Shown here: in pieces, positions 10,015 to 43,799 of the stretch
Layout of the letters: the number at the start of each line of letters is the position of its first letter
How positions within the stretch are numbered: the first letter of the stretch is position 1
Origin: Octopus vulgaris
Taxonomy: Eukaryota
Length of the DNA stretch: 64,000 nt
Assembly: GCA_951406725.2 (NCBI GenBank)
Contig: OX597817.1
Span: 175,150,001 to 175,214,000 of the forward strand
Direction of reading: 5' to 3'
Notes under the pieces: generated by a model
Seen by the model: only the letters and a program-made list of their open reading frames with translations
Told to the model about the DNA's origin: nothing
The model's database searches: none
Made by a program: the position numbers and the translations under genes

Positions 10015-10219
10015 TGTGACAATTATTCGGTTGCCATAATAAAACTCCGAGTTTCGGATGTTGGGACAGAAATCTGCTCTGGCATCTTGTCCCTTATCAA
10101 GACAAAACAAAAATTCTATTAAAATGTTTTGTCTTAATAACTGATGAGATGACAGAGCAGATTTCCGCCCCAACATCCGAAACTCGGAGTTTTATTATGG
10201 CAACCAAATAATTGTCACA
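10015..10219. mobile_element. Foldback element (~95-bp arms), probably a Penelope-like terminal repeat
   Basis: TGTGACAATTATTCGGTTGCCATAATAAAACTCCGAGTTTCGGATGTTGGG... is reverse-complemented up to 10219; the right arm contains a hammerhead motif. Confidence 0.8.
10135..10197 (+). ncRNA. Minimal type I hammerhead ribozyme motif, canonical core
   Basis: UAAUAA-CUGAUGA-GAUG[22 nt]CAUC-C-GAAA-CUCGGAG-UU-UUAUUA: stem I 6 bp, stem II 4 bp, stem III ACUC/GAGU, cleavage triplet GUU. Confidence 0.75.
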
Positions 10220-10343
10220 TTATTTTACAGACAAATTCCTCTGTTTACATAATAATGAGGTCTCATTCATTCTTTTGTTGTCATACTATTTCTATCAATA
10301 TATATATATTTATACACACACACGCACACACTTGCATACATAT

Positions 10344-10863
10344 AAACTTAAACTTAGATAAACTTAGATGTGTTTCGACCAAAGATTGGCCCAGGCCATG
10401 TCTAACTTAATAGCACCACCTGATAGGATTATTTGAATCCTGTTTAAGTCAAGTTTTGTTTATGGTCCATTCAAGTAGTGAGTTTTTGTTGGGTGAGTTG
10501 TATCCAATTATGGGTGGCTTATCTGGTATTCTTCAAAGGAATCTATCCAGACTCCGTTTAAAGTTGATGGGATCCTGTTCCTCTTTGATCTCTTTCAGGA
10601 CAATGTTAAATAGGGCAGGGCCTGTTGAGGAAAAGAAATTATGTTGTAAAGTATATGTATGCTGTGATCTTGAATTGGGCAGGGGACGTATAGCCCGTGG
10701 TCCCAGTCTTGGATGAACCTTGAAGCTTATGTTCAGGTCGTTTGGGCAAAGTTGGTGGTATATTCTCCACATCGTACAAATGATGTACCGCTCACGGCGA
10801 CGCTGGAGAGAGTAGAGTTTCAAGGCTTTAAGGCGATCCCAATAATCGAGAGCAGCCATGCCA
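10344..10863 (-). mobile_element. CR1 LINE 3' fragment, diverged subfamily with (ATCTAAGTTT)n tail
   Basis: ORF 10533..10877 (LKLYSLQRRRERY...HPRLGPRA) is homologous to the C-terminus of 2093..3460; shares the GTGCTATTAAGTTAGACATGGCCTGGGCCAAT 3' motif. Confidence 0.88.
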
Positions 10864-11046
10864 AAGGAAGTATTCACTTATTTTCAATTACAAATGGTTA
10901 CACTGAAAGTGTAACTGAAATATGTGTGTGTGTATATATATATATATATGTATGTATATATATATTATATATATATATATATATATATATATATATATAT
11001 ATATATATATATATATATATATATATATATATATATATAAATAGCT

Positions 11047-11463
11047 GAGCGCTACATCATCTGCATGATGTGGAAAATATTCCATCAGCATTGCCCAAAT
11101 GATGTTGGCATCACCTTTATATCAAGGCTTGCCCCGTGCCATCCGCCCAAAACAAAAATCGCACTCTCATCTCATAACAACAATACGGCACATTATTTCA
11201 CTCATTGCCCCGCTCTCTTTAACATTACACCAAAACACATTAAAACAGAAACTGACCCTATAGGGTTCAAGAAGTCTTTGGACAGATTCCTTCAAGAAAT
11301 ATAAACCTACACCCGGATATGTCTCTGTAAACAATAACTCTCTATTGAGTGGGCCATAGTGCCCAAATTCTGACTTGAAAGACTTCACCAGGTGGTGCTA
11401 TTATTAGACATGGCCTGGGCCAATAATGGCCGAAACCTATCAAAGTATCAAAGTATCAAAGTA
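11047..11463 (+). mobile_element. CR1 LINE 3' fragment, same subfamily as 2008-3740
   Basis: MMWKIFHQHCPNDVGITF...KKSLDRFLQEI, ending in (AAAGTATC)n; (TA)n on both sides. Confidence 0.9.
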
Positions 11464-11984
11464 TATATATATATATATATATATATATATATATATATAT
11501 ATATATATATATATATATATATATATATATATATATATATATATATATATATATATATATATATATATATATATATATATATATATATATATATATATAT
11601 ATATATATATATATATATATATATATATATATATATATATATATATATACATATATATATATATATATATATATATATATATATATATATATATATAATA
11701 CATATATATATATATATATATACATATATATATATATATATATATATATATATACATATATATATATATATATATATATATAATACATATATATATATAT
11801 ATATACATATATATATATATATAATATATATATATATAATACATATATATATATATATATATATATATATATATATATATATATATATATATATATATAT
11901 ATATATATATATATATATATATATATATATATATATATATATATATATATATATATACATATATATATATATATATATATATAT
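11464..11984. repeat. ~520 bp (TA)n microsatellite
   Basis: Directly visible. Confidence 0.97.
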
Positions 11985-40879: not shown

Positions 40880-41217
40880 TGCAGCGTGGAAGGTGTTTAT
40901 AAGCCATTTAAGAAACACACAAAAGCCGTTCGATTCACTTCAACATTTAAGTTTAATTTGTCAAAATATTTTCGTCGCTAAAATCCTGACAAAATTCCGT
41001 GCTGCATCTCACGAGATGCAGCACGGATTTTTGTCAGTGAACAGGTCGCGGATTTTAGCGACGAAAATATTTTGACAAATTAAACTTAAATGTTGAAGTG
41101 AATCGAACGGCTTTTGTGTGTTTCTTAAATGGCTTATAAACACCTTCCACGCTGCAATTGTTTTCGTTTCAGCACACGATCTCAGATCAAATTACTTGCT
41201 ATGCGAGTACACCTCCC
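40880..41217. mobile_element. Young foldback element (palindrome 40880-41156 plus one-sided extension) inside (TA)n, probably Penelope-like
   Basis: Over 100 bp of perfectly complementary outer arms; the left arm lacks the 13 nt that carry the ribozyme core. Confidence 0.85.
41030..41079 (+). ncRNA. Minimal hammerhead motif, G3-C8 variant
   Basis: UUUGUCA-GUGAACA-G-GUCGC-GGAUUUUA-GCGAC-GAAA-AUAU-UU-UGACAAA: 7-bp stem I, 5-bp stem II, palindromic stem III AAUAUU. Confidence 0.72.
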
Positions 41218-42805
41218 TATATATATATATATATATATATATATATATATGTGTGTGTGTGTGTGTGTGCATATTTCTGTGTGTTTGCTCCAACAACAAA
41301 AAAGTACTGTTGCCAAAACAGGCCATTTACCTGCTCAGATGTGCTAAATCATCTGCGTCCAGGCTGTTGTGTCAAGTCATCTTATTGTAGTGACAGGAAA
41401 AGTATCCAACTGTAAAACAATGTCTTAATAAAATGTAACAATCTTAACCCAAGCTATGTTTGAAAAATGGATGTAAAATGAGAACAGATGAATGATGTGT
41501 ATGTGAGAGACAGAGAGAGAGCAGTGGAGTGGGAAAGAGAAAGAAAGAGGTAGATAGATAAATAGATGGAGAGAGGGGTGTGAAGCTTTTGTTCAAAAAT
41601 ATTTTTTTGTGTTGCTGCTATTGTTGCTTTGGAAATTGGCAAAATTGCTTGAGGATGCTTTTATTCATACAACTAAGAATTCTGTCTTAGTTTTCTCAAG
41701 GAATCCATTTGGTTATACTGACATTGTTGATATTTATTCTAAAAGTTGTATTTTAAGACAAAAATTGATACATATATTCTAAACATTATTGCTCATGGTG
41801 TAATGGTTGACTTAAAGGCAGCTTTGGTTTGTGTTGTTAATTTTAATTCATATAGATGCCTATATACGCATTAGTGTGTGCATATACAAATATAGCCGGG
41901 CGAAATGCGTAGCCGTATTTCGTCTGCCATTACGTTCTGAGTTCAAATTCCGCCGAGGTCGACTTTGCCTTTCTTCCTTTCGGGGTCGATAAATTAAGTA
42001 CCAGTTACGCACTTTTTATTTAATTTCTCTTAGTTAACATATATCCTTTTTGACATTTCCAGTGCTTAGAAGTTCAATCATAAGGGATTATATATGTTTT
42101 GTCTACTTGAATGGAATCAACATAAATTTGAAGTTTTATAAAGTTATCTTACATTGTATGTTTATTTCTTAAGTTGATTGAGTTTCAAATAATGATGTCT
42201 GACAAAGTGAATGGACAATAAGAGTTTTATTTCATTTAATTGCAATGTGTTACATATATTGTATATATTATATATCTATATATGTGGTATGGTATGGAAT
42301 AAAAAAAAAAAGCCCATTCATTTACTGAAATGGTTGTAACATCTCTTTGAATTTCTTTTTTTCCTCATTTAAATTATCATCATCATCATCATTATCATCA
42401 TTATTATTATTATTATTATTATTATTATTATTATTATTATTATTATTATTATTATTATTATTATACATACATTCCTATATACATACATACATGTATGTAT
42501 ATATATACACATATATATAAGTGTGTGTGTGTATCATCATCATCATCATTTAACGTCCGCTTTCCATGCTAATATATATATATATATATATATATATATA
42601 AGTAATTGTTTGGACTTTGGGTGTATGTCTAATAGTATGCCGGTTAAAGCACATTCACCATTTGGGCTACCTGATGTCATTCACAGTTATGTTATAATTT
42701 TCACTGGATCTCCATCAGGAATTCTGCTGTGTTTGTTTGGTTATAGTTCATGAGGGAATACATATATAATTTTATATATATATATATATTGTATTTCGGG
42801 TTTGT

Positions 42806-43120
42806 CTTTTTTTTTTGTCAAATAAACACATGCACAATATGTTTGTTTTTCACTCATTTATTACTGTTCTTATTTGAACTCGTGTCCATTGCCTGGAAAT
42901 CTTTTGTCATACCTCTGTGACCTCTTCAGCAACACTTTCTGTCTGCCTAGTGGACTAAGCAGAGCAGGAGTACACACGAGGACAGAAAGTGTTGCTGAAG
43001 AAGTCACAGATATGTGACGAAAAATTTCCAGACAATGGACACGAGTTCAAATAAGAACCGTAATAAACAAGTGAAAAACGAATATATAGTGTGTGTGTTT
43101 ATTTGGCAAAAGAAAGAAAG
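42806..43120. mobile_element. Foldback element (arms ~42806-42943 / 42981-43120), probably Penelope-like
   Basis: For example TTCTTATTTGAACTCGTGTCCATTG pairs with CAATGGACACGAGTTCAAATAAGAA. Confidence 0.8.
42990..43034 (+). ncRNA. Minimal hammerhead motif, canonical core
   Basis: UGUUG-CUGAAGA-A-GUCACA-GAUA-UGUGAC-GAAA-AAUU-UC-CAGACA: 6-bp stem II, palindromic stem III AAAUUU, triplet UUC. Confidence 0.75.
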
Positions 43121-43525
43121 AATGTCAACACACGGTTTCACATCAGGAATCTTGCAACACAAATTCTTAAACGTATATATGTGTATGTGTGTAAATAAAT
43201 TATATGTATATATCTATATCATTGTAATCATTATAATTCAGAATACCTGAGGCATATCTAAGGTAACCTAGAGTAATTTATTTACAAGTCTGAACTGTGG
43301 GGGTTGCAGAGGATGAGAGAACCTCTTATTGTTCTCTTAGGTGACCAGAAAAATATTTGGAGATTTGAGTGCTTTCACATCATCAGCAATCTACAGCTAA
43401 AGCTTTCAAATGAATAAGTGTAGATATATCAGTATTATACACGTATATATATATATATATACATATATATATAGGAGAGTATTGTAGTTCACTTGAAGTA
43501 TTGTATATTGTTTGTAAAAAAATAA

Positions 43526-43799
43526 TGTGTCTTGAATGACACAGCAATGTACTATAATATCAAAAATGAACTATAATAACTGTTATAATTTAATCATCCA
43601 CAGTCTGATATGATATTTCGGAATATAAAAATTCCTTCTTCAGATATCCCTAGGAATTGATTGAATCACGGTATGCCTGAAGAAGGAATTTTTATATTCC
43701 AGAATATTATATCATATCAAACTATGGATGATTAAATTATAACAGTTATTACAGTCCATTGTTGTTATTATAGTGTATTGTTGTGCCAGTGAAGACACA
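43526..43799. mobile_element. Foldback element (arms 43526-43643 / 43677-43799), probably Penelope-like
   Basis: AATAACTGTTATAATTTAATCATCCA pairs with TGGATGATTAAATTATAACAGTTATT; CTGAAGAAGGAATTTTTATATTCC occurs on both strands. Confidence 0.8.
43607..43648 (-). ncRNA. Minimal hammerhead motif, canonical core
   Basis: Minus strand GAUAU-CUGAAGA-A-GGAAU-UUUUAU-AUUCC-GAAA-UA-UC-AUAUC: 5-bp stems I and II, palindromic stem III AUAU, triplet AUC. Confidence 0.75.

Follow-up and report, generated by a model that had tools for sequence, protein, structure and literature searches.

The 64,000-nt stretch of Octopus vulgaris DNA analysed here (the window; G000:C4:175150001-175214000, in a genome searched as 227 contigs totalling 2.8 Gb) is AT-rich and rich in microsatellites. 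It harbours seven elements bounded by inverted repeats (A to G), each displaying the layout of a minimal hammerhead ribozyme and probably representing the 3' end of a Penelope-like retrotransposon. The elements and their hammerheads are located as follows (window positions):

10015-10219 (tail to about 10290): foldback A, an inverted pair of Hydra-like Penelope 3' ends; self-complementarity 86 %
10135-10197, plus strand: hammerhead A; core CUGAUGA 10141-10147 (C3-G8), GAAA at 10179, stem III ACUCGGAGU, predicted cut after 10191
14710-14876: foldback B, Hydra-like Penelope 3' ends; self-complementarity 90 %
14801-14838, plus strand: hammerhead B; core CCGACGA 14805-14811 (C3-G8, U4C), GAAA at 14822, predicted cut after 14834
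24783-24927: element C
24857-24895, minus strand: hammerhead C; core UUGAAAA 24891-24885 (U3-A8), GAAA at 24868, predicted cut after 24861
30917-31422: inverted-repeat element D; arms 30917-31103 and 31232-31422
31308-31345, plus strand: hammerhead D; core UUGAUAA 31311-31317 (U3-A8), GAAA at 31333, stem III ACAUGU, predicted cut after 31342
40880-41156 (one-sided tail to about 41215): foldback E, flanked by (TA)n tracts; core deleted from the left arm
41030-41079, plus strand: hammerhead E; core GUGAACA 41037-41043 (G3-C8), GAAA at 41063, stem I 7 bp, stem II 5 bp, stem III AAUAUU, predicted cut after 41072
42809-43115: foldback F
42992-43031, plus strand: hammerhead F; core CUGAAGA 42995-43001 (C3-G8), GAAA at 43019, predicted cut after 43028
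43522-43803: foldback G, one end at a (TA)n tract
43607-43648, minus strand: hammerhead G; core CUGAAGA 43643-43637 (C3-G8), GAAA at 43619, predicted cut after 43612

All seven sites and cores of the original prediction were recovered, with core, stem II, GAAA, a (near-)palindrome, U-H and stem I' following one another, and the motifs possess the three-way junction of a hammerhead (core, GAAA and U-H with stems I and II). The canonical CUGANGA core is present in A, F and G and replaced in B (U4C), C and D (U3-A8) and E (G3-C8); the ordinary C3-G8 pair occurs in four of the seven cores, and complementarity of positions 3 and 8 holds in all seven, as predicted. Stem I comprises just 3-4 bp in C, D and F. 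All seven stems III are indeed self-complementary, A and B having one unpaired base at the centre and family F a G.U pair; the palindrome is spelled differently in each family, and predicted self-duplex energies range from -9.7 to +2.2 kcal/mol. Inverted repeats bound every element, those of C measuring merely 25 bp. The supposed lack of a common sequence stands insofar as blastn finds none among the seven window elements, but C, E and F belong to homologous families, and so do A and B (see below).

Such layouts might arise by chance in AT-rich palindromes, and the deviating cores by random decay of CUGANGA. A strict descriptor, blind to the letters at positions 3 and 8, recovers five of the seven hammerheads (C, D, E, F and G), every one with a Watson-Crick pair at 3-8, versus a mean of 0.135 (maximum 1) in 200 dinucleotide shuffles of the window and 3 matches in 2,100 shuffled foldbacks. 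Hammerhead A lies outside this descriptor as it requires an extra base before GAAA, and B as stem II of the window copy has decayed (family form ACG-GGAA-CGU). A looser descriptor, run on the window together with 20 segments of 10 kb spaced evenly along contig 1 and on 20 shuffles, yields 13 matches, 12 of them paired at 3-8, versus 3.3 and 0.6 in shuffled DNA; the 3.3 matches per 264 kb imply that some such matches are fortuitous, and single copies do show C.A, U.G and CpG decay. No hammerhead family is among the 150 of 244 Rfam matches listed for the window, and Rfam covariance models gave no match at gathering score in 9 loci. A weak UUGAUAA layout at window position 15510 (plus strand), present as a single copy with a stem III of one base, is probably due to chance.

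Each window element belongs to a dispersed family with a core fixed at the family level and not decayed, in agreement with the original prediction. First-look relatives amounted to 110-1,862 candidates per element. In 20-29 loci per family, with the core outside the query except for B and counting only arms that extend past the core, the 3-8 pair of the window copy is retained in 32 of 33 arms (A), 21/28 (C), 26/29 (D), 21/23 (E), 27/33 (F) and 18/18 (G), as well as in 30/37 arms of B, whose core lay inside the query. Exact patterns leaving positions 3 and 8 free (N) matched genome-wide (i) 6,024 times for E, with G3-C8 in 95 of the 100 matches listed, (ii) 78 times for C, with U3-A8 in 70, C.A in 5 and U.G in 3, and (iii) 1,361 times for B, with CCGACGA in 89 and CUGACGA in 6 of the 100 listed. 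Since CUGACGA is the CpG decay product of CCGACGA, C4 represents the source state of B. Reversed patterns, used as controls, had no match genome-wide, and C3-G8 is absent among the listed matches of C and E. These results, together with the excess over shuffled sequence, refute chance and random decay.

A C3.A8 subfamily of C (5/28 arms, 5/78 matches), considered as an intermediate, was rejected, since no common diagnostic letters were seen; these copies are read as transitions for the same reason and because U3.G8 occurs too (3/78). In contigs of four sequencing runs with four organism labels, no variant at or above 5 % was listed for positions 3 and 8 of E. In run X6, aligned to window 41012-41215, loose ends read G-C-G-A-G-C-A at the core (G3-C8 plus U4C), a reading from another organism label (5 records, agreement 0.86) that serves as a lead only.

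The spacing of the inverted arms varies among copies in all seven families (e.g., 27-158 nt in B and 49-1,383 nt in A). Many copies consist of a single arm, one arm bears a tail, several copies sit at (TA)n, and long copies extend into endonuclease sequence. The same foldback anatomy, (TA)n bias and one-sided tail were described for EN+ Penelope-like elements by Craig et al. 2021 (PMC8557442; comparisons with this and all other papers cited refer to their accessible parts), and the 5' truncation, inverted copy, one-sided tail and microsatellite bias of such elements are all found here. Since Penelope insertions are known to have this anatomy, the foldbacks were formed at insertion. E copies frequently end or turn back at a small hairpin immediately 5' of stem I (window 41005-41025), a possible stall site of the reverse transcriptase (RT); the first query favoured such copies.

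GIY-YIG endonuclease sequence lies upstream of the hammerhead end in six of the seven families (A to F), bearing out the predicted Penelope origin; no Penelope frame was found inside the window itself. A PF01541 profile search gave 148 scored matches, many of them in 781-aa frames. The anticipated linkage to open reading frames with both RT and GIY-YIG is complete in a family closely related to D, which has intact frames of 771-781 aa, the 781-aa frames holding RVT_1 and then GIY-YIG in a single frame. A UUGAUAA-type motif is located 0.6-1.1 kb past the frame in all 10 long-frame copies examined, one motif being decayed. In D itself, GIY-YIG is found upstream on the same strand (L064/L107, L069, L082), in A an endonuclease fragment upstream of the motif (L184, L173, L189, L194), in B the endonuclease C-terminus about 1.3 kb upstream (L034, L055), in C upstream GIY-YIG fragments (L169, L166), and in F remnants of linker and GIY-YIG upstream on the same strand (L247, L240). 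The fragments of A and C have no Pfam match and were assigned by sequence similarity. In case of E, the link is a chain: L297 carries the linker, the GIY-YIG end and a 3' region abutting a 98 % match to L292; L292 is contiguous with an E copy, and three more matches to this segment lie 548-572 nt before GUGAACA matches. The E fragment reaches an E-value of 3.4e-4 and 21.3 bits against PF01541, slightly below the 22.6 cut-off.

Several candidate links were not counted. An RT fragment that adjoins an E copy in L275/L293 and was first taken as E's own was set aside because its closest relatives run into a different AT-rich family. Endonuclease matches in L014 (E), L047 (B), L073 (D) and L250 (F) lie on the wrong strand or past another motif, and other repeats occupy the regions upstream of L289 and L298. 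L153 contains a junction with a short common stretch and lends weak support to the link of C. A PDB search with the 781-aa protein returned no match. Among the sampled loci, L121-L138 represent a young Penelope family with intact 771-781-aa frames and many near-identical copies. A second young Penelope family (L296; G000:C4:127713067 region) has frames of 838-862 aa in which RT and endonuclease are separated by an insert rich in asparagine and very rich in AT, and no hammerhead was found within 1.95 kb. A long E copy in L291 is inserted into 3 kb of short, nested AT-rich repeats that contain internal inversions as well as an assembly gap.

The original prediction had regarded the elements as non-autonomous families. 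Foldback or retrozyme-like families moving as units would fit the very many short copies, the clustering of E fold points near the internal hairpin and the absence so far of an endonuclease link for G. This part of the prediction did not hold, given copy-specific fold points, many one-arm copies, the entry of long copies into endonuclease frames in six of the seven families and the intact 771-781-aa frames of the D-related family. The fixed length and fixed inverted structure of miniature inverted-repeat transposable elements were not found in the seven families, arm spacing being variable throughout. Non-LTR (long terminal repeat) retrozymes (PMC7229834; 10.64898/2026.07.22.740005) likewise contain type I hammerheads related to Penelope repeats, but they form head-to-tail arrays with canonical hammerheads, whereas the copies described here are dispersed, inverted and attached to endonuclease sequence. 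Short tandem arrays, as known from retrozymes (10.64898/2026.07.22.740005), were not seen; the copies occur as dispersed singles or inverted pairs, and no head-to-tail arrays turned up, a dedicated tandem scan not having been made. Movement as non-autonomous units is thus very improbable and already largely refuted: the variable fold point and the upstream GIY-YIG indicate 5'-truncated inverted Penelope insertions rather than non-autonomous masters.

In an endonuclease tree based on about 95 columns and excluding L203, L220, L296 and six others (replacing a first tree that gave long-branch warnings), C (U-A), E (G-C) and F (C-G) form one clade (100/98), and A and B another (96/94). D, its relatives, an A3-U8 family and a C3-G8 family form a poorly separated group of similar proteins, with 38-56 % identity to the endonuclease fragment of the A3-U8 family. 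The complementarity at 3-8 thus reflects true covariation among the homologous families C, E and F. In their aligned hammerheads, U4, G5, A6, A9, G10.1 and GAAA do not vary, and pairing at 3-8 and in stem II holds in 36 of 36 cells, eight having changed on both sides; comprising six rows from three families, this alignment is descriptive only. The flanks of the motifs are unalignable while G5, A9, GAAA and U16.1 persist.

A relaxed scan of the sampled loci revealed the fourth pair, A3-U8, in the core AUGAAUA of L130 (3562, plus strand; 1886, minus strand; G000:C4:866857-868589), located 510 nt past the GIY-YIG motif and in both arms. Its pattern has 148 exact matches genome-wide, with A3-U8 in 99 of the 100 listed; stem II comprises 2 bp, and stem III is ACCGGU. 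More U3-A8 families and a second CCGACGA family were also seen. The largest family seen has the core CUGUNGA (A6U, all four letters at position 7) and 16,491 exact matches, with U6 in 96 of the 100 listed, and C3 in 19/21 and G8 in 21/21 sampled copies. It lies behind the GIY-YIG of L014, has members in L014, L005, L032, L182 and others, and with stems I and II of 4 bp each is sister in stem II to a CCGACGA family. Position 7 is free to vary both in this family and in A, where the arms have C, A or U. For a GCGUAGGCUC family, a reading as U3.G8 with a free position 4 was rejected, since shifting the register by three yields CUGUNGA with 4-bp stems. In L220 (minus strand), 479 nt past the GIY-YIG motif, the core UCGACAA combines U3-A8 with U4C in one of two sampled copies, and L295 may carry a similar UCGAUAA-like motif.

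All four Watson-Crick pairs (C-G, U-A, G-C and A-U) are hence present at 3-8 in one genome. The four non-canonical exact patterns and the A6U pattern together have more than 24,000 matches; this abundance and the Rfam scans without hammerhead matches agree with the expectation that CUGANGA-based scans miss such motifs. Unpaired 3-8 occurs in no multi-copy family seen, and every multi-copy family seen to depart from C3-G8 changes both sides. With C-G as the ancestral pair, a minimum of four double substitutions at 3-8 is implied. The four forms of the pair suggest that the ribozyme fold is likely kept under selection, with cleavage as the predicted activity.

The 3-8 pair is kept in differing letters, likely since the source elements depend on an active fold for self-cutting of their RNA. 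The RT-endonuclease would start copying the RNA 20-110 nt beyond the ribozyme, stop early and then add a second copy in inverted orientation, frequently within (TA)n. Two same-strand hammerheads within the source RNA would pair via the palindromic stem III and cut after NUH; dimer cleavage was weakly shown for Schistosoma motifs (PMC4209133). The insertions extend 20-110 nt beyond the predicted cut, which therefore does not set the 3' end; it would more likely release the element RNA's 5' end from a longer transcript. The two motifs of each foldback are on opposite strands, and GAAA is paired in the predicted read-through fold in six of seven cases; the genomic foldbacks are predicted to be silent, with the core buried in one long hairpin.

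At a probability of roughly 0.7, the seven elements represent 3' ends of seven Penelope-like retrotransposon families, inserted in 5'-truncated and inverted form, with cutting by the hammerhead under selection, and the selection for cleavage, which we infer from sequence, would by itself be about as probable. A number of observations weigh against this reading. Concerning the Penelope assignment, the G loci spanned just 351-401 bp, so that the endonuclease link is counted for the other six families only; in A, B, C, E and F only endonuclease or linker sequence was seen, the RT of E not being seen; and the endonuclease tree has about 95 columns. Concerning cleavage, U3 can pair with A17 in D and G3 with U17 in E, and a same-strand upstream hammerhead, which the direct pseudo-LTRs of partial Penelope tandems would supply, was found in none of the 10 long-frame loci within the 0.7-2.1 kb upstream examined. 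Other findings would fit Penelope ends with near-vestigial hammerheads or folded signals (for protein binding or RT start), the 3-8 pair being kept for shape or by older selection. Two changes known to reduce hammerhead rates, U4C (B) and A6U (the family with 16,491 matches), are fixed at the family level; the young family with intact frames has a stem I interrupted after 1 bp and a stem II that begins with G.U; and the A3-U8 family has only 2 bp in stem II and a lowest-energy fold that is not a hammerhead. Moreover, minimal Penelope hammerheads are weakly active (PMC4209133), cleavage of the anole element is dispensable for insertion in vitro, with no reads ending at the cut site (PMC11167929), and Naiads thrive without a hammerhead (PMC8557442). 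However, the 3-8 pair is part of the catalytic conformation (PMC3088659), the multi-copy families leaving C3-G8 all change both sides, and G5, A9, GAAA and U16.1 are retained amid unalignable flanks. A merely structural or near-vestigial role is accordingly unlikely, though far from negligible, and selected cutting is preferred.

Minimal type I hammerheads of metazoan Penelope-like elements were described by Cervera and de la Pena 2014 (PMC4209133). Common to these and the present motifs are a short stem I, a longer stem II, an extra base before stem II, a palindromic stem III, the position in the 3' repeat and opposite-strand pairs 100-700 bp apart. The U3-A8 cores UUGAUAA and UUGAAAA are known there from Schistosoma families. 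The 56 representative motifs of that paper comprise 53 with C3-G8, two with U3-A8 and one with U3.G8; its accessible part includes none with G3-C8, A3-U8, U4C or A6U, unlike here, and lists no cephalopod. A and B match the Hydra clade (PMC8557442) in the CxCX5C linker (L184), the extra base before GAAA and the ACUC-N-GAGU stem III, but the hammerhead rows listed from File S2 of that paper are all CUGANGA, whereas B has U4C. Natural U3-A8 covariation, as here, was reported by Perreault et al. 2011 (PMC3088659), together with U4C in a viroid and A6C in a phage, the latter with low activity; these variants are rare single ribozymes with tertiary contacts, and the accessible text names no G3-C8 or A3-U8. 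The Poseidon element PAc of the anole (Frangieh et al. 2024, PMC11167929) likewise contains a Penelope hammerhead and accounts for the tail. Its C3G/G8C double mutant partly restores cleavage; G3-C8 is an engineered state in PAc, but here a family of thousands of copies has it naturally.

Already known from the literature are thus Penelope hammerheads, dimer cleavage, the extra base, inverted or opposite-strand copies, U3-A8, C3G/G8C rescue and viroid U4C. The accessible literature yielded no natural G3-C8 or A3-U8, no genome with all four pairs and no family-wide U4C or A6U, so that priority is uncertain. Many Penelope-linked hammerhead variants were reportedly described by Lunse in 2017. Tentatively, and with somewhat less than even odds, the octopus families may represent active Penelope hammerheads in all four 3-8 forms, including the first natural G3-C8 and A3-U8, along with U4C and A6U families of thousands.

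Apart from the seven elements, the window contains broken RT frames of the LINE (long interspersed nuclear element) type at 2093-3816 (minus strand), with more pieces near 12418-12826. Fragments at 4356-4730 and 60802-61269 (both minus strand) resemble Tc1/mariner transposases in their motifs. Long inverted repeats of 215-242 nt and 87-89 % at 26895-27136, 28662-29071 and 30054-30268 have no hammerhead match.

A function of the Penelope hammerhead is in question, as it is slow in vitro, dispensable in one reconstitution and absent from Naiads. Compensatory swaps that recur at a pair belonging to the catalytic conformation constitute the strongest kind of sequence evidence for selection on the fold. 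CUGANGA and Rfam scans undercount hammerheads in this genome, and the families recovered here supply natural wild types for comparing the pair with single mismatches and monomers with dimers. If active hammerheads do occur in all four 3-8 forms, these families would prove from nature that the catalytic fold is needed by Penelope elements, and would offer a ready series for tuning the cleavage rate.

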